64,000 nucleotides of DNA from positions 137,712 through 201,711 of the forward strand of contig JAPLDO010000078.1 in the NCBI GenBank assembly GCA_026391715.1. The letters run 5' to 3'. This DNA is from Bacteroidota bacterium. Lineage in GTDB: Bacteria; Bacteroidota; Bacteroidia; Bacteroidales; FEN-979. The position numbers and the translations under genes are program-made. Below the pieces are notes generated by a model. The model worked only from the letters and a program-made list of their open reading frames with translations. It searched no databases and was not told the origin of the DNA. The number at the start of each line of letters is the position of its first letter. The stretch's first letter is position 1. Positions 56,185-64,000 of this stretch are shown here, piece by piece.

Positions 56185-57795
56185 ATGAAAATTCAGCGAT
56201 CACACCACCGGTTTAAAGCCCGGACGCCCCTGCGGAACCCGGTAAACGATGCCAACGCGTTTGCAGCATCGTTGCGGGCAGTTGGTTTTACCGTGATCGT
56301 GAAGAACAACCTGAACAAGACGGAGATGGAAAACGCGGTGAGAAATTACTCGCAAAGGCTCACCGCCGGCGATGTCGCGCTGTTCTATTACAGCGGCCAC
56401 AGGATGCAGGTAAAGGGCGTCAATTACCTGGTGCCGGTGGGCGAAAGCATCTATTCGGAGGTTGATATTCCATACAAGAGCATGGAGGCACAATTTGTGA
56501 TTGACTACATGCAGGAGGCAAAAACCTCTGTGAACATCATCATCCTTGATGCCTGCCGCGACAACCCGTTCAAATCCTTCCGATCCCTGAGCCGCGGGTT
56601 TGTGCCGGTAATCGCCCCCCAGGGCACTTTCATCGCCTATTCCACCGCCCCCGGAACGGTAGCCTTCGATGGCGCCGGCAGCCACTCACCTTACACCGAA
56701 AACCTGATCGCCTCCATGAAAAAACCGGGGATGCCCATCGAGGAGATGTTCAAAGAGGTGAGGCGGAACGTGATGAACGAAACTTCGAAGATGCAGGTGC
56801 CGTGGGAATCCTCGTCATTGATTGATGCCTTCGCGTTCAATGGGGTTGTAAATTCAAAGATTGTAATTCCCGAATCAACACCGCCCATCGTCAATAAACC
56901 ACTTGCTAAGACTGCAAATTTGCATAAGGATTGTAATAGACTTATTTATATGGCCGATAGATCCTTAAGCGATAAAGAATACTTCAATGCACGAGAAAAC
57001 TATCAAAAAGCGTCACTCATTGAACCTGGAGAGTCCTATCCAAAAGATAAAATCCGGGAAATAGATATATTGCTGGCTAAGAACTTAGATTTATTTACTA
57101 CTATGGTATTTGTGGAGGGCGGAACTTTTCAAATGGGCAGCAACGATGGTTATGACAATGAAAAACCGGTACATTCGGTAACGCTCAATAATTTTTATAT
57201 CGGCAAAACCGAAGTGACCCAGAAACAATGGAGGGAGGTGATGGGCAGCGATCCGCCGGAGTTAAATAACAAAGGTTGCGATCAATGTCCGGTAGAGGGT
57301 GTTTCATGGATTGATGTACAGGATTTCATCACGAAACTGAACCGGAAAACCAATAAAACTTATCGCCTGCCCACCGAAGCAGAATGGGAATATGCCGCAA
57401 GGGGCGGAAACAAAAGCAGGGGATACGCGTATAGCGGAAGCACCAACGTTGGCGATGTGGCATGGTATTCAGAAAATTCCGGTTTAATAACCCACCCGGT
57501 CGGGCAAAAAGAGCCAAATGAACTCGGGATTTACGACATGACCGGAAACGTTTGGGAATGGTGCAGAGATTGGTATGGTGCCTATGAATATGACTGGAAC
57601 AGTACGATTTCCAACCCTCAGGGCCCTTCATCGGGCTCCGACCATGTGTTTCGCGGTGGCGGTTGGGGCATCGGCCCTCAGTACTGCCGCACTTCGTATC
57701 GCAACGGCGCTGCCCCCGACTATCGCAGCTACTATCTGGGGTTTCGTTTTTTTTTTCCCATAGTTCGGGGGCGGCTGTTTGGCCATTCCTTTTGA
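56185..57795 (+). CDS. caspase-like (peptidase C14) - FGE-sulfatase/C-type-lectin-fold fusion protein, putative DGR target A
   Basis: Caspase motifs are NPVNDA, YYSGHRMQ (His) and ILDACRDNPF (Cys). FGE-type motifs are RLPTEAEWEYAARGG, GNVWEWC, RGGGW and LGFR. There is no signal peptide and the first caspase strand appears to be missing. Confidence 0.8.
   Translation: MKIQRSHHRFKARTPLRNPVNDANAFAASLRAVGFTVIVKNNLNKTEMENAVRNYSQRLTAGDVALFYYSGHRMQVKGVNYLVPVGESIYSEVDIPYKSMEAQFVIDYMQEAKTSVNIIILDACRDNPFKSFRSLSRGFVPVIAPQGTFIAYSTAPGTVAFDGAGSHSPYTENLIASMKKPGMPIEEMFKEVRRNVMNETSKMQVPWESSSLIDAFAFNGVVNSKIVIPESTPPIVNKPLAKTANLHKDCNRLIYMADRSLSDKEYFNARENYQKASLIEPGESYPKDKIREIDILLAKNLDLFTTMVFVEGGTFQMGSNDGYDNEKPVHSVTLNNFYIGKTEVTQKQWREVMGSDPPELNNKGCDQCPVEGVSWIDVQDFITKLNRKTNKTYRLPTEAEWEYAARGGNKSRGYAYSGSTNVGDVAWYSENSGLITHPVGQKEPNELGIYDMTGNVWEWCRDWYGAYEYDWNSTISNPQGPSSGSDHVFRGGGWGIGPQYCRTSYRNGAAPDYRSYYLGFRFFFPIVRGRLFGHSF
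57610..57760 (+). repeat. putative DGR variable region, copy A
   Basis: Aligns with 61215-61364 and 63251-63400. Blocks such as GGCCCTTCATCGGGCTCCGACC and CGCGGTGGCGGTTGG are invariant, and substitutions are confined to particular codons. Confidence 0.6.
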
Positions 57796-57855
57796 GCCAG
57801 GACATTCAAAATTCCTAACTTCGCTGATGAAAAACATTTAAAACAGCAAATTGAA

Positions 57856-59100
57856 ATGACTAAAATAAAAATAAAGAATTTCGGGCCCGTCAAAGAGGGA
57901 TATCAGGACAATGACGGCTGGCTTGATGTGAAAAAGGTTACCCTGTTTATCGGTAATCAGGGAAGTGGTAAAAGCGCCGTGGCAAAACTTATCACAACTT
58001 TTATGTGGATAGAGAAAGTCCTTACAAGGGGCGACTACGACAGGAAAAGTTTTTCAAAAGTTTTTGCCATGAAGGACCAGGGGAAAAACCAGTTTCTCAC
58101 ATACTTCCGGTTGGAAAATTATTTTCCGACCGACCGCACCAGAACTTTGATTGAATACAAAGGCGAATCATTCAACATTACACTTGAAAACGGACAACTA
58201 CATATTGAAGCTGCGAAAAATGGCGACTACCCGCTGCCACAAATCATGTATGTTCCGGCCGAAAGAAATTTTATTGCAAATGTGAGAACCCCGAAAGCGC
58301 TGAAACTGATTTCGCCTTCCTTGTCGGAATTTGTGACCGAGTTTGACAATTCCAGGGATGAAATTAGAGAGCCGATGCTTTTGCCAATCAATGATGCCTT
58401 TGTTGAGTATAACAAGTTGAACGATGTTGTTTATATCAAAGGGAATGATTACAGGATTAAGTTGACCGAGTCATCAAGCGGTTTTCAGTCATTGGTCCCA
58501 TTGTTTTTGGTTTCATGGTTTCTTTCCAATTCAGTTAAGCGACAAAGCGACAACACGAAAGAATTGATGACAAGTGAACAAAGGGAACGATTTCGCAAAC
58601 GGTTTCAGGCAATAAATGAAAACCTTGATTTAACCGAAGAACAAAAACGGATTGCAATTTCTTCACTTGCAAAAGAATTTACCAAAACTGCTTTCATCAA
58701 TGTCGTAGAAGAACCGGAACAAAATCTGTTTCCAGGTTCGCAACATGGGGTGTTGAACCGGTTGATCGAATTCAACAACATGAATAGCGGGAACAAATTA
58801 ATAATGACCACCCACAGCCCATACCTGGTTAATTATCTGACTTTGGCAGTAAAGGCAAATGATTTGAACGGAATGATCAAAACGGAGGCGCTTAGAACAC
58901 GGTTAAATGAAATTGTTCCCCTCCAATCAACAACAAGCGCCGACGAGCTTGCAATTTACGAAATGAACGAAAAGGATGGGACGATAGTAAAGTTGGCCAA
59001 CTACAAAGGGTTACCTGATGACGACAATTATTTGAATGAAAAGCTGGCAGAATGCAACGAACTATTTGCAAAACTATTGGAAATTCAGCAAGAAATATGA
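57856..59100 (+). CDS. ABC-type (AAA_15/AAA_21-like) ATPase
   Basis: Has N-terminal IKNFGPV, Walker A (GNQGSGKS), Q-loop (YVPAERN), signature-like SSSGFQS, Walker B (FINVVEEPEQNLFP) and H-loop (MTTHSP). Confidence 0.8.
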   Translation: MTKIKIKNFGPVKEGYQDNDGWLDVKKVTLFIGNQGSGKSAVAKLITTFMWIEKVLTRGDYDRKSFSKVFAMKDQGKNQFLTYFRLENYFPTDRTRTLIEYKGESFNITLENGQLHIEAAKNGDYPLPQIMYVPAERNFIANVRTPKALKLISPSLSEFVTEFDNSRDEIREPMLLPINDAFVEYNKLNDVVYIKGNDYRIKLTESSSGFQSLVPLFLVSWFLSNSVKRQSDNTKELMTSEQRERFRKRFQAINENLDLTEEQKRIAISSLAKEFTKTAFINVVEEPEQNLFPGSQHGVLNRLIEFNNMNSGNKLIMTTHSPYLVNYLTLAVKANDLNGMIKTEALRTRLNEIVPLQSTTSADELAIYEMNEKDGTIVKLANYKGLPDDDNYLNEKLAECNELFAKLLEIQQEI

Positions 59101-59612: not shown

Positions 59613-61364
59613 ATGAAGACAAAACTACATTTTTTCATTTTATGTGCCATTTCCATTTTTTACGCTTCGGTGGTCTCCGCCCAGGAGCGCGGCATGCAGC
59701 CTGTCATTTTGAAAATTGACGGCAAAACCACCACGCTCTACCGGCAAAGTTACGCGCTGGTTATCGGGGTGAGCAAATACACAAGCGGATGGCCATCCCT
59801 TCCTGGCGTTGAAAGCGATGTAACGGCAGTGGTATCGGCGCTGGAGAAAAACGGGTTTAATGTTACAAAGGTCCTTAACCCTCAGACCAGGGCCGATCTG
59901 GAAACTGCCATTGAAAATTTTATCAACAGGCACGGGCAGGACACCAACAGCCGTTTGCTCTTTTATTTCGCCTTGCACGGTCACACCATCAAAATGTCAT
60001 ACGGGGAGAGCCTGGGCTACCTTTGTCCCGCCAACGCGCCAGACCCGAATACCAACAAGGCAGATTTTATAACAAAAGCTTTGCCCATGGAAGCTTTTGA
60101 TTTGTTCGCCAAAAAAATAAACTCGAAACATGCCCTGTTTTTGTTCGACGCCTGTTTTGCCGGGCAGGTCTTTTCCGCTACCCGCGCCGCGCCCGAGATA
60201 ATCCAATACAAAACCAGGTTGCCGGTGAGGCAGTTCATCACCAGCGGCGATGCCGATGAAACCGTTCCAGATGTGAGTATTTTCAGGCGGGTTTTTGTTC
60301 AGGCGTTAGAGGGGTATGCCGAAAAAGGCGGCGATGGTTACCTCACCGGCTCCGAACTGGGTGAATATCTTCAGGAACAGGTGGTCAACCTTTCGAATGG
60401 AACCCAGCACCCGCAGTATGGCAAGATCAGGAACATTTATTTAAACAAAGGCGATTTCGTGTTCGTGGTGAAACAAAACACGGCAAAGCCACCGGATGAA
60501 ATCATCATCGAACCGGAAAAACCAAGGATAGCTGACGCTTCGTTTATCCCCGCAGTGGTTTCCATTCCCGGCGGTACTTTCCTTATGGGCAGCAATGATG
60601 GGGAAGATGATGAAAAGCCGGTGCACCGGGTTACGGTAAGTGGTTTTTCGATGGGGAAATACGAAGTAACAGTTTCGCAGTTTAAGAAGTTTATTGACGA
60701 AACAGGCCACCGTACCGATGCCGATAAAGATGGCGGCAGTTACATGTGGACAGGCAGCGAGTGGGAAAAACGCGCCGGGGTAACCTGGAGGTGCGACGCG
60801 GAAGGGAACGCCCGCCCGCAAAACGAATATGACCACCCGGTGATCCACGTAAGCTGGAACGATGCCGTTGAATATTGCAGGTGGTTGAGCGGCAAGACCG
60901 GAAACACCTACCGTTTGCCAACCGAAGCCGAGTGGGAATATGCCGCTGGAAACGGCGCGAAACACACCAGGTACAGTTGGGGCAACGGGGAGCCATGGGG
61001 TAAAAATGGCGGGAACGTAGCCGATGAAGCGGCAAAAAGAAAATTTTCCGGTTGGACCATCTTTTCCGGTTATGACGACGGTTACGTGTTTACTTCGCCT
61101 GTTGGAACCTATAATCCAAACGAATTCGGACTTTACGACATGACCGGCAACGTTTGGGAGTGGTGCAGCGACTGGTATGGCGCGCAATATTACCAGGGCA
61201 GCCCGGCTTCCAACCCTGAAGGCCCTTCATCGGGCTCCGACCGTGTGTTTCGCGGTGGCGGTTGGCTCATCTACCCTCAGTACTGCCGCACTTCGTATCG
61301 CAGCGACCGCACCCCCGGCTACCGCAACTACTATTTGGGGTTTCGTTTGGTTTTTGTCCCATAG
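59613..61364 (+). CDS. secreted caspase-like (C14) - FGE-sulfatase/C-type-lectin-fold fusion protein, putative DGR target B
   Basis: Has a signal peptide ending VVSAQE and caspase motifs YALVIGVSKY, LHGH and LFDACFAG. FGE-type motifs are RLPTEAEWEYAAGNG, GNVWEWC, RGGGW and LGFRLVFVP. Confidence 0.85.
   Translation: MKTKLHFFILCAISIFYASVVSAQERGMQPVILKIDGKTTTLYRQSYALVIGVSKYTSGWPSLPGVESDVTAVVSALEKNGFNVTKVLNPQTRADLETAIENFINRHGQDTNSRLLFYFALHGHTIKMSYGESLGYLCPANAPDPNTNKADFITKALPMEAFDLFAKKINSKHALFLFDACFAGQVFSATRAAPEIIQYKTRLPVRQFITSGDADETVPDVSIFRRVFVQALEGYAEKGGDGYLTGSELGEYLQEQVVNLSNGTQHPQYGKIRNIYLNKGDFVFVVKQNTAKPPDEIIIEPEKPRIADASFIPAVVSIPGGTFLMGSNDGEDDEKPVHRVTVSGFSMGKYEVTVSQFKKFIDETGHRTDADKDGGSYMWTGSEWEKRAGVTWRCDAEGNARPQNEYDHPVIHVSWNDAVEYCRWLSGKTGNTYRLPTEAEWEYAAGNGAKHTRYSWGNGEPWGKNGGNVADEAAKRKFSGWTIFSGYDDGYVFTSPVGTYNPNEFGLYDMTGNVWEWCSDWYGAQYYQGSPASNPEGPSSGSDRVFRGGGWLIYPQYCRTSYRSDRTPGYRNYYLGFRLVFVP
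61170..61364 (+). repeat. putative DGR variable region, copy B
   Basis: Collinear with 63206-63400. Roughly two dozen substitutions fall in about 20 codons, nearly all at codon positions 1-2. The last 29 nt including the stop are identical. Confidence 0.65.
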
Positions 61365-61520
61365 TTTGGGGGAGGCTATTTTGCCATACCTTTTGAGCTA
61401 AGAAGAGACGAGTTTTGCAAGGAGGGAGGGAGGGACGACCGACCGACAAGGCAAAACGAGGAATTAACAATACCGCCCATGGCGGTCGAAATTTTTTTGA
61501 AAATGCAGCTAAAATTATTT
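61365..61520 (+). repeat. conserved 3' element after target B (IMH-like GC block, G-rich tract, hairpin, relic of HRDC gene start)
   Basis: Near-identical to 63401-63560. It contains GGAGGGAGGGAGGGACGACCGACCGAC (61421-61447) and the hairpin ACCGCC-CAT-GGCGGT (61472-61486). It ends with ATGCAGCTAAAATTATTTGCC, which resembles the HRDC ORF start. Confidence 0.75.
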
Positions 61521-61588
61521 GCCCGGATGTCACAAAGCAATCTTTTCGTCCACTTATTATTACCTTTAGTGCGATAAATTGCCACGTT

Positions 61589-63400
61589 ATGAAAACAGCC
61601 CTCCTCCTTGTCCTGCCTTTTTCCATTTTCATTTTTCACTTTTCACTTGTCTCAGCCCAGGAACGCGGCATGCAGCAGGTAAAGGTGAACATCGCCAACA
61701 AACCGGTTGTCCTTTATCAGAAAAGCTATGCCCTGCTGATTGGCGTAAGCGATTATTCCAATGGATTGAAAAAACTCCCTGGCGTAAAAGAGGACATTGA
61801 GGCAGTGAAAGATCAACTGGAAAAGTTCGGTTTCCTGGTGACGGTGGTCATGAACCCCGATAATACCGGGTTGACCAATGCGTTTAACAATTTCATCGCC
61901 AATTACGGGCAGGAGAAGGAGAGCCGTTTGGTTTTTTATTTTGCCGGGCATGGATATACAAGGAACATATACGGCAATGAGATAGGCTATCTGCTGCCTG
62001 TAAATTGCCCGAATCCGGAACTCAACCCATCCGGATTCCAGTCGAATGCCATGCCAATGGGTCAGATCGAACTCTTTGCCCAGCAGGTAGGGTCGAAGCA
62101 TGCCCTTTTTCTTTTTGACGCCTGTTTTTCGGGCGCTGTTTTTGCGCCGTCAAGGGATATTCCGGGGATCATATCATATAAAACTGAACTGCCTGTGCGC
62201 CAGTTCATCACCAGCGGCAGCGCCGACGAAACAGTGCCCGATCAAAGTATATTCCGCAGGCAGTTGTTGGCTGGCTTGCAGGGCGAAGCCGATTTAAACC
62301 ACGACCAATACATCACCGGTACCGAACTGGGGGATTATCTTCAAACAACCGTAGTAAATTATTCCCGCTCTTCATTGCATCCACAGGTAGGAAAAATCCG
62401 CGACCCGAAACTCGACGATGGCGATTTTGTGTTCGTGGTGAAAAATAACACGGCAAAGCCACCGGATGACATCATCATCGAACCGGCAAAAACATGGGTG
62501 CAATACGGCAAACTGGAACTCATGACCGAAATTGCGGGATCCCTTTACATTGACGGCGAAAACAAACAAACGCTCAATGCAAACACCATAAATACTTTTG
62601 GAAATCTTCCGGCAGGTTCGCACACCATTAAAATAGAAGGCGAAGAAACAGTTGAAAAGGAGGTTACCATAACTGCCAATGAAACGGCTAATTTAACCAT
62701 GAAAAAGAGGCCGCGGCAAGCTGCATCAACAGATAATGAAATGGTATTTGTGGAAGGCGGAACCTTTCAAATGGGCAGCAACGATGGGGATAGCGATGAA
62801 AAACCGGTACATTCGGTAACGCTCAATAATTTTTATATCGGCAAGACCGAAGTGACCCAAAAACAATGGAGGGAAGTGATGGGCAGTGATCCGCCGGATT
62901 TAAAAAACAAAGGTTGCGATCAATGTCCGGTGGAGAGTGTTTCATGGAATGATGTACAGGATTTCATCGCAAAACTGAACCGGAAAACCAATAAAACTTA
63001 TCGCCTGCCCACCGAAGCCGAATGGGAATATGCCGCAAGGGGCGGGAACAAAAGCAGGGGATACGCGTATAGCGGAAGCGCCAACGTTGGCGATGTTGCA
63101 TGGTATTCAGAAAATTCCGGTTCAAAAATCCACCCGGTCGCGCAAAAACAACCCAATGAACTGGGGCTGTACGACATGAGCGGCAACGTTTGGGAATGGT
63201 GCAGCGACTGGTATGTCGCGCAATATTACCAGAACAGCCCGGCTTCCAACCCCCAAGGCCCTTCATCGGGCTCCGACCGTGTGCTTCGCGGTGGCGGTTG
63301 GGACTACGACCCTCGGAACTGCCGCTCTTCGTTTCGCGGCAACGACCCCCCCGCCGACCGCGGCGACGATTTGGGGTTTCGTTTGGTTTTTGTCCCATAG
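61589..63400 (+). CDS. secreted caspase-like (C14) - PEGA-like - FGE-sulfatase/C-type-lectin-fold fusion protein, putative DGR target C
   Basis: A signal peptide starts at the ATG at 61589 (MKTALLLVLPFSIFIFHFSLVSAQE). Caspase motifs are YALLIGVSDY, AGHGY and LFDACFSG. A middle domain carries LPAGSHTIKIEGEE, and the FGE-type C-terminus is about 93-95 percent identical by eye to target A. Confidence 0.85.
   Translation: MKTALLLVLPFSIFIFHFSLVSAQERGMQQVKVNIANKPVVLYQKSYALLIGVSDYSNGLKKLPGVKEDIEAVKDQLEKFGFLVTVVMNPDNTGLTNAFNNFIANYGQEKESRLVFYFAGHGYTRNIYGNEIGYLLPVNCPNPELNPSGFQSNAMPMGQIELFAQQVGSKHALFLFDACFSGAVFAPSRDIPGIISYKTELPVRQFITSGSADETVPDQSIFRRQLLAGLQGEADLNHDQYITGTELGDYLQTTVVNYSRSSLHPQVGKIRDPKLDDGDFVFVVKNNTAKPPDDIIIEPAKTWVQYGKLELMTEIAGSLYIDGENKQTLNANTINTFGNLPAGSHTIKIEGEETVEKEVTITANETANLTMKKRPRQAASTDNEMVFVEGGTFQMGSNDGDSDEKPVHSVTLNNFYIGKTEVTQKQWREVMGSDPPDLKNKGCDQCPVESVSWNDVQDFIAKLNRKTNKTYRLPTEAEWEYAARGGNKSRGYAYSGSANVGDVAWYSENSGSKIHPVAQKQPNELGLYDMSGNVWEWCSDWYVAQYYQNSPASNPQGPSSGSDRVLRGGGWDYDPRNCRSSFRGNDPPADRGDDLGFRLVFVP
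63206..63400 (+). repeat. putative DGR variable region, copy C
   Basis: See copies A and B. The variable codons read GAC TAC GAC ... AAC ... GGC AAC GAC ... GCC GAC ... GGC GAC GAT. Confidence 0.65.
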
Positions 63401-63538
63401 TTCGGGGGCGGCTGTTTGGCCATGCCTTTTGAGCTAAGAAGAAACGAGTTTTGCAAGGAGGGAGGGAGGGACGACCGACCGACAAGGCAAAACGAGGAAT
63501 TAACAATACCGCCTGTGGCGGTCGAAAAAATTTTTGAA
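63401..63538 (+). promoter_or_regulatory. conserved 3' element after target C (IMH-like GC block, G-rich tract, hairpin)
   Basis: TTCGGGGGCGGCTGTTTGGCC follows the stop directly. The G-rich tract is at 63457-63483 and the hairpin ACCGCC-TGT-GGCGGT at 63508-63522. The stems are identical in copies B and C while the loops differ. Confidence 0.55.
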
Positions 63539-64000
63539 ATGCAACTGAAATTGTTCACCATCCCTGTAACCGACACAGGGGCTTTTACAGAAGAACTCAA
63601 CAGGTTTTTGCGCGCCAATAAAATACTGGAAGTCGAAAATCATTTGATAAGCAATGAACACGGGGCATCCTGGTGTTTTTGCGTAAAATATATCGAATCG
63701 GGCTGGACACCCCACCCCGGCGACCGGCCAAAAACAGATTATAAAACCGAGTTGGACGCGGAAACTTTTGAAGTGTTTTCAAAACTCAGGGAGGCTCGTA
63801 AACAGTTGGCTTTGGAGGATGCCGTTCCCGCATACGCTATCTGTACCGACCAGGAGATGGCTTTAATTGCCAAACTAAAAGAGTTGACCCTTGAAAATTT
63901 ACTTACCGTGAAAGGTTTTGGGGATAAAAAACTTGAAAAATACGGAAACCGGCTAATCCTTATAGTTAAACAAAAAACACAAGATGAAAAGGGCAGGGAA
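63539..64000 (+). CDS. HRDC-domain protein, N-terminal part (frame open to right window edge); candidate DGR accessory gene
   Basis: The frame runs uninterrupted from the ATG at 63539 to the window end. FEVFSKLREARKQLALEDAVPAYAICTDQEMALIAKL...VKGFGDKKLEKYG fits the HRDC consensus. It is absent from the ORF track because no stop is reached. Confidence 0.75.
   Translation, partial: MQLKLFTIPVTDTGAFTEELNRFLRANKILEVENHLISNEHGASWCFCVKYIESGWTPHPGDRPKTDYKTELDAETFEVFSKLREARKQLALEDAVPAYAICTDQEMALIAKLKELTLENLLTVKGFGDKKLEKYGNRLILIVKQKTQDEKGRE

Follow-up and report, generated by a model that had tools for sequence, protein, structure and literature searches.

How the complementary DNA (cDNA) made by a diversity-generating retroelement (DGR) finds and enters its target gene is the main open step of DGR biology, and was still stated to be unknown in 2026 (PMC12875486). 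The closest described system is the DGR of Bordetella phage BPP-1, where cis-acting elements at the 3′ end of the variable repeat (VR), namely an initiation of mutagenic homing site (IMH, with its counterpart IMH* in the template repeat, TR) and a stem-loop, set the directionality and efficiency of retrohoming (PMC3240598, PMC5703328). The cDNA of BPP-1 is primed from an adenosine of the spacer and stays linked to the RNA (PMC6182149; bioRxiv 10.1101/2023.10.23.563531), and Naorem et al. proposed in 2017 that this RNA primer pairs with the IMH and that the product is an Okazaki-like intermediate (PMC5703328). Where IMH and IMH* are identical, a downstream discriminator is required, as noted by Wu et al. 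in 2018 (PMC5758913). In this work we have analysed a window of 64,000 nt of a Bacteroidota bacterium (assembly GCA_026391715.1, contig JAPLDO010000078.1, hereafter C149, positions 137712-201711; the genome has 5.0 Mb in 256 contigs), in which lies an HRDC-type DGR that extends beyond the window end. Its target genes are followed by a block with up to four parts, in the order X, hairpin P1, hairpin 2 and, after targets B and D, a relic of the start of the HRDC gene. X is complementary to the RNA directly 3′ of the TR, and the whole block is probably a cis-acting recipient signal of this DGR, an RNA-guided mark of the target for retrohoming.

Among known elements, the locus belongs with the HRDC-type DGRs (Architecture C, Treponema denticola type; PMC5758913), with which it shares the HRDC gene, a DGR reverse transcriptase (RT), targets of the C-type lectin (CLec) fold and the possibility of multiple targets; only 14 such elements were reported in that work, where neither a complementarity of the TR and VR flanks nor the P1 hairpin is described. 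Targets combining a caspase with an FGE-sulfatase (CLec) domain, several of them for one DGR, have been reported in multicellular and conflict-system bacteria (bioRxiv 10.1101/2023.09.22.558884; PMC7517822), in papers that treat the target proteins and not the downstream non-coding elements. A more distant parallel is offered by the pairing of exon- and intron-binding sites (EBS-IBS) in group II introns, whose RTs are related to those of DGRs: there the RNA of a retroelement identifies its DNA target through base pairs next to the site of insertion, as we infer here. However, a DGR lacks ribozyme, reverse splicing and endonuclease, and the pairing in our locus would be one long stretch 3′ of the replaced segment. 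In the literature searched, whose coverage was incomplete, we found no description of the X complementarity or of the P1 hairpin with its GAGGGACGA loop.

The resemblance to BPP-1 lies in the cis-elements at the 3′ end of the VR, proposed here to play the same part in retrohoming, in a hairpin downstream of the VR, and in a cDNA-attached spacer RNA proposed to pair with the target as an Okazaki-like intermediate. The differences are the following: IMH and IMH* are one and the same over 31 nt, the discriminator lies outside both repeat and open reading frame, measures about 36 nt and relates to the TR flank as its reverse complement, not as a near-copy, a large extra hairpin carries the invariant GAGGGACGA loop, the small hairpin stands 108 nt from the VR instead of 4 nt, and the accessory protein is HRDC instead of Avd. 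The two features by which BPP-1-type targets are recognised, an IMH differing from IMH* and, a few bases past the VR, a GC-rich inverted repeat, are both absent. Up to the stop codon, the TR has the same final 31 nt as the VRs of targets B, C and D, and therefore X versus its complement beside the TR, X′, is the sole local feature that separates recipient from donor. The first-pass annotation of the window had taken the GC-rich segment after the stop codons as a candidate IMH, to be compared with the 3′ end of the TR. A relation between them does exist, but it is inverted, and since the TR does not share the segment, it does not qualify as an IMH as understood in BPP-1. The parts of the block after targets B and C are as follows.

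61364-61400, + strand: X_B, the G of the stop codon plus 36 nt, GTTTGGGGGAGGCTATTTTGCCATACCTTTTGAGCTA, complementary to the RNA directly 3′ of the TR
61409-61460, + strand: P1_B, rod hairpin with loop GAGGGACGA at 61430-61438, 55.5 bits with covariance model R1
61472-61499, + strand: hairpin 2 after B, ACCGCC-CAT-GGCGGT (stems 61472-61477 and 61481-61486), then CGAAATTTTTTTG
61503-61523, + strand: HRDC-start relic after B, ATGCAGCTAAAATTATTTGCC, with similarity ending at 61519-61523
63400-63436, + strand: X_C, GTTCGGGGGCGGCTGTTTGGCCATGCCTTTTGAGCTA, 36 pairs with the TR-spacer RNA at -66.1 kcal/mol (RNAduplex)
63445-63496, + strand: P1_C, hairpin with a GAGGGACGA loop, 55.5 bits with covariance model R1
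63508-63536, + strand: hairpin 2 after C, ACCGCC-TGT-GGCGGT (stems 63508-63513 and 63517-63522), then CGAAAAAATTTTTG, directly before the HRDC ATG

Read in reverse complement, the TR flank, TAGCTCAAAAGGTATGGCCGGATAGCTTCCCCTGAAC, corresponds to the flank of the VR of target B, GTTTGGGGGAGGCTATTTTGCCATACCTTTTGAGCTA, and the complementarity starts directly after the identity of TR and VR ends. A blastn search of the whole genome returns it as an inverted match of 32 nt (E = 4e-4) between 61369-61400 and the 32 nt that begin with the last three bases of the TR, these three lying inside the repeat. X′ extends from the last TAG of the TR to a conserved GAAC. X_B forms 36 paired positions with the TR-spacer RNA at -61.6 kcal/mol (RNAduplex) and, if G·U pairs are allowed, 36 of 38 positions pair in B, C and D and 33 in target A. 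The first 40 nt after the stop, where X lies, show no significant structure of their own (z = -0.13).

Another complete HRDC-type DGR (DGR2; C225:46001-56000, minus strand, L082) is present in this genome, with a 269-aa FGE-type target followed by HRDC, RT and TR. Its RT is about 68% identical in DNA to that of the first element (DGR1), and it has trans targets at C159:678-1062 (minus strand) and C147:6663-6937. The cis and trans targets of DGR2 each have their own X, complementary to the DGR2 spacer and unlike the X of DGR1 in sequence. According to RNAduplex, the DGR1 spacer pairs with its own targets A-D at -58.7 to -66.1 kcal/mol and with the DGR2 targets at -42.5 to -44.8 kcal/mol; the DGR2 spacer likewise prefers the DGR2 targets, and the advantage of its own targets for each spacer amounts to 12-20 kcal/mol.

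The same relation holds beyond this genome. From 260 relatives found, we fetched 80 loci encoding related RTs and detected their TR/VR pairs, which the majority of them carry, through adenine-biased mismatches. Within the clade of the same architecture, whose RTs are about 45% identical or more, the VR flank again corresponds to the TR flank read in reverse complement, with sequences that differ from one locus to another, and the pairing of X covaries in the second DGR of the genome and in about 20 related DGRs of other genomes. In 39 relatives of the same architecture, cognate flank duplexes sum to -1248 kcal/mol against -842±29 for permuted ones, none of 20,000 permutations attaining the cognate sum. 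For arm 1, the 17 positions counted from the last three bases of the TR, 87% of the cells are paired compared with 60% in column shuffles and at most 45% in slid registers, and 16 of the 17 pairs show compensatory change with both sides altered; for arm 2, the ungapped register was too noisy for a formal count. Transition mismatches are mostly of the G·U type (52, against 13 of the A·C type; about 36 against 10 with one row per locus), and these G·U-compatible imperfections on the sense strands therefore point to an RNA partner, the sense strand of the target pairing with a sense transcript of the TR flank. Altogether, X and X′ stay complementary across related DGRs through compensatory changes, and the pairing is specific to each of the two DGRs of this genome. 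Homology in the same orientation between the distal flanks of TR and VR was also considered; it scores only in this locus and in L009 (z about 4), and is not general.

P1 follows X, and is built of a CGAG/CGAG closure with tandem G·A pairs, an outer stem GUUUUGC/GCAAAAC, an inner stem again with tandem G·A pairs, and an invariant loop of 9 nt, GAGGGACGA. The copy after B folds with a minimum free energy of -16.6, compared with -8.2±1.9 for shuffled sequences (z = -4.4). Its outer stem covaries among relatives (GCUUUGCC/GGCAAAGC in L001; UUGGCU/AGCCAA in L003, L005 and L007), with four to five pair types for each pair, and is longer in L009, L011, L019, L036, L044 and L087. Since stem lengths vary, MAFFT followed by RNAalifold on the raw VR flanks yielded almost nothing, and alignments registered by hand and N-masked were used instead, together with a covariance model (R1) built from 8 sequences. 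In 14 sequences so aligned, 77% of the cells are paired, against 45% when shuffled and 31-36% when slid. R1 also picks up L019, L036, L009 and L024, as well as a second copy in tandem in L003, always on the target strand. It finds four copies in the present genome, every one after a target, and matches two of 401 sampled genomes of the phylum; in the second genome it again falls in a series of FGE-type VR, X, P1 and hairpin 2, in an unrelated family. The tandem copy belongs to a Paludibacter-like metagenome-assembled genome, where two P1-type hairpins stand one behind the other after a single VR (L003:495-622).

The G-rich tract that the first-pass annotation had described as four G-runs able to form a G-quadruplex belongs to P1, and its actual runs are GG, GGG, GGG and GGG. 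A role as quadruplex is unsupported because the four runs are not kept in relatives, which retain only GAGGGACGA (the copy on C159 reads AGAGGGAGTGAGGGACG; likewise L009, L019, L044 and others).

Hairpin 2, the small GC hairpin that had already been noticed, has identical stems in B and C (ACCGCC/GGCGGT) and different loops (CAT versus TGT). Its consensus is ACCGCC-N3-GGCGGU-CGAA(A/U) followed by a U-run, and homologous hairpins with altered stems, among them ACCCCGC/GCGGGGU, ACCGC/GCGGU, GACCGCC/GGCGGUC and GGGGGC/GCCCCC, occur in L001, L005, L007, L011, L018, L052 and L087. This hairpin, earlier proposed as a candidate equivalent of the homing hairpin of studied DGRs, is conserved with covarying stems in related DGRs; it stands 108 nt after the VR rather than adjacent to it. 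Its fold alone is unexceptional (z = -1.0). A scan with a terminator consensus lists it among 25 sites where 19 are expected, an excess without overall significance; CGAAA separates the stem from the U-run, and different families have retained the stem sequence, as plain terminators seldom do. With its U-run, hairpin 2 may also end the transcription of the target genes.

As a whole, the block had been described as about 135 nt nearly identical after B and C, and the alignment bears this out, with 89.7% identity over 155 nt (61365-61519 against 63401-63555; blastn), the near-invariant part of the B copy running from about 61392 to 61476. A third full copy, 92% identical to both, follows target D (C149:204491-204651), while only the first 34 nt, 97% identical to C, remain as a stub after target A. 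All occurrences of the block in the genome follow FGE-type DGR targets, four on C149 and, in diverged versions, others on C159 and C147, so that the alternative of a generic repeat is not upheld. The C159 copy also has a P1 hairpin, and relatives in other genomes keep the same order of parts after X, in agreement with the original idea of a conserved cis-element tied to DGR targets. No Rfam family matched the block when the 12-kb locus and the DGR2 locus were scanned (cmscan, E <= 1), the only matches being chance ones to miRNA and RNase P families at other sites.

In the mechanism that we favour, reverse transcription would be primed in cis and the spacer RNA would remain joined to the adenine-mutagenised cDNA, as in BPP-1. 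X′ would then anneal to the sense strand of the target beside the VR, where X′ RNA and cDNA would be colinear with the antisense strand of VR and X; annealed in this way, X′ would anchor the cDNA at the right genes and block homing into the TR. This would leave a piece of RNA-DNA resembling an Okazaki fragment, which host enzymes could mature. Like the target stem-loop of BPP-1, P1 (with its GAGGGACGA loop) and hairpin 2 probably serve to dock proteins or to open strands. A 2026 study reported that targets co-directional with replication are edited better, attributing this to the cDNA-complementary strand being on the lagging-strand template, and that direct tests altering the activity of the DnaG primase were negative, a result called inconclusive by its authors (PMC12875486); the GC skew of our genome is a weak sign of targets co-directional with replication. 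Whether HRDC-type DGRs choose their recipients by an RNA guide, about 36 nt of spacer RNA on the sense strand after the VR, with the GAGGGACGA hairpin docking an RT/HRDC complex, is a more tentative matter, to which we would give slightly less than an even chance. If true, the choice of targets would be programmable by base pairing and orthogonal between DGRs of the same cell, which could account for the assignment of several dispersed genes to a single retroelement, suggests a way of aiming DGR-based mutagenesis tools, and would give a direct handle on the step of cDNA integration. A long covarying complementarity of TR and target flanks, a conserved hairpin and two DGRs with cognate guides make the model testable by compensatory mutation.

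The natural experiment provided by target A, a decaying gene with X and without P1 and hairpin 2, speaks for this recipient-signal reading. A number of points weigh against it. The decay of A could stem from a 2-nt deletion of its own instead of the loss of P1 and hairpin 2. For the covariation counts, sequences were brought into register by hand or according to their best complementarity, a procedure biased towards the structure, and many of the loci are related, so the counts are not independent events. The priming nucleotide was not located: a candidate template:primer duplex, spacer GGGACGAA with TR UUUGUCCC, is inconsistently conserved, and the spacer hairpin followed by (A)CGAAUA is conserved in position and inconsistent in its complementarity to the end of the TR. 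For this reason the adjacency of X′ and the 5′ end of the cDNA is only a model. Finally, the sequences would fit RNA:DNA and RNA:RNA pairing alike.

This last point leads to a doubtful alternative in which X, within the 3′ untranslated region (UTR) of the target mRNA, pairs with the X′ of the DGR RNA, and P1 and hairpin 2 recruit RT/HRDC to the nascent transcript or regulate the expression of target or DGR. The G·U bias fits it equally well, P1 is RNA-like in its tandem G·A pairs and conserved loop, and a hairpin 2 followed by a U-run would put X and P1 within the target transcript. However, tandem G·A pairs are also possible in hairpins of single-stranded DNA, such a role is without precedent in DGRs, and it does not by itself explain the rewriting of DNA. 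A single cis transcript running from target C through HRDC, RT and TR to the spacer would also bring together X and X′, which lie about 1.7 kb apart on the same strand, in a duplex of ~36 bp whose cutting, for example by RNase III, could release or stabilise the DGR RNA, the X copies in trans being by-products of duplication. We regard this as quite unlikely, given that X is kept with its cognate specificity at trans targets (C159, C147) and downstream of the TR (target D; L004, L017, L044).

Priming at the target itself is unlikely too. Here the X′ RNA would sit on the sense strand at X, and a nick after GAGCTA would give a 3′-OH that primes cDNA synthesis into the TR, with TAG pairing to CTA. 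The pairing does include exactly the last 2-3 nt of the TR, the geometry of a primer-template junction, but the product would be a fold-back (VR, X and antisense TR) on the sense strand instead of a replaced VR; moreover, no endonuclease domain was found by Pfam in the RT or HRDC proteins, and cDNA synthesis in BPP-1 is target-independent and primed in cis (PMC5703328, PMC6182149). The remaining option, which we hold to be very unlikely, is that the block has no role in the DGR and has hitch-hiked as a 3′ UTR, terminator or intergenic spacer copied by recent duplication or gene conversion. Recent copying is evident from the HRDC-start relic and from the roughly 90% identity of B, C and D, yet the same architecture occurs with compensatory changes where RTs are only 45-60% identical and in other families, and both the complementarity of X to the TR flank and its covariation fit poorly with a passive passenger.

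The relic itself is well supported. The sequence after B, ATGCAGCTAAAATTATTTGCC, coincides with the start of the HRDC gene, ATGCAACTGAAATTGTTCACC (63539-63559), in 16 of 21 positions, as had been suspected, and a longer relic, ATGCAATTGAAACTATTTACCATTC, follows D, so that the two relics span 21-27 nt. The first-pass annotation read them as the result of a tandem duplication of a unit running from the target gene to the beginning of the HRDC gene, with C as the derived copy. The copying and the relic stand; the direction and the simple unit do not, since the copies are mosaic. Target C adjoins the real HRDC gene and keeps the original junction with it, whereas B and D hold relics, which makes a C-like module the source of both. 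The stretch common to C and D measures 825 nt at 90% identity, beginning where the FGE domain does and reaching into the HRDC-start relic; that of A and C measures 697 nt and stops where X ends; and B shares with C and D about 405 nt, starting at 61116, which is 116 nt before its VR, further upstream being only about 70% identical. Because these shared stretches differ in extent between copies, a 3′ module consisting of the C-terminal lectin part, the block and the first 21-27 nt of HRDC must have been copied or converted onto different gene bodies. We infer that the relic is functionless, a trace of how the 3′ modules of targets were copied.

The order of the locus is targets A, B and C, then HRDC, RT, TR and target D, with TR and D lying outside the window; positions beyond its end are given as window-equivalents.

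56185-57795, + strand: target A
57633-57797, + strand: 3′ end of target A, with VR_A at 57633-57763 and the X-only stub at 57764-57797
59613-61364, + strand: target B, secreted caspase (Peptidase_C14) and FGE-sulfatase/CLec protein (Pfam), VR at 61232-61364
61589-63400, + strand: target C, caspase, PEGA-like and FGE-sulfatase/CLec protein (Pfam), VR at 63268-63400
63539-64007 (window-equivalent), + strand: HRDC accessory gene, Pfam HRDC (PF00570), TGA at 64005-64007
63984-64982 (window-equivalent): RT gene, Pfam RVT_1, overlapping the HRDC gene
64984-65116 (window-equivalent): TR
to about 65240 (window-equivalent): spacer, ending in a T8 run
65298-66779 (window-equivalent): target D, beyond the TR

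This is an HRDC-type DGR, with RT, adenine-biased TR/VR pair, accessory gene and CLec-fold targets all in place. The translation of the RT carries the DGR signature IGNLTSQ, and all four targets combine Peptidase_C14 and FGE-sulfatase (PF03781) with a C-terminal VR (Pfam). All the differences with the TR fall at TR adenines in VR_B (18/18, none elsewhere), VR_C (21/21, none elsewhere) and VR_D (19/19). VR_A shows 20 differences at adenine sites and 7 others, including the 2-nt deletion, which shifts the stop 32 nt downstream; target A lacks a signal peptide, and its block is cut after X, where an unrelated pair of ATPase/nuclease-like genes begins, so this stretch (56185-57860) has the look of a former target in decay.

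The spacer 3′ of X′ (C149:202828-202950, window-equivalent 65117-65240) shows, together with the TR flanks of L001-L052, a GAAC(A/C)G motif, a covarying hairpin followed by (A)CGAAUA and, about 100 nt after the TR, U(A/G)GUAG. Taken together, these conserved features probably form the region of the DGR RNA that serves RT binding and priming.

For annotation, X may serve to assign orphan or trans targets to their DGR. One gene of this genome ends in an FGE-type VR-like sequence followed by an X-like element, GTTCAAAGTGGAAATCCATACCGGTTTTGAGCTAA (C8:1329-1600), with which both spacers pair poorly (about -28 kcal/mol), and no TR flank complementary to it occurs in the assembly; probably this gene is the orphan target of a DGR that was lost or did not assemble. 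More distant DGRs, with RTs 36-43% identical (L043, L045, L048, L049, L054, L055, L058, L060, L063, L076), are without X and present pyrimidine-rich repeats of the TTACC(C)TTT type directly after the VR, which may be a different recipient signal. In a further distant class (L074, L070, L061, L065, L067), the TR flank copies the 5′ arm of a hairpin that follows the VR, as in GGGTCCCATCCGG compared with CCCATCCGC-GGTA-GCGGAGATGGG, and therefore the RNA of the TR flank could pair with the 3′ arm, which may explain the weaker cognate signal of the far set (z about -4).

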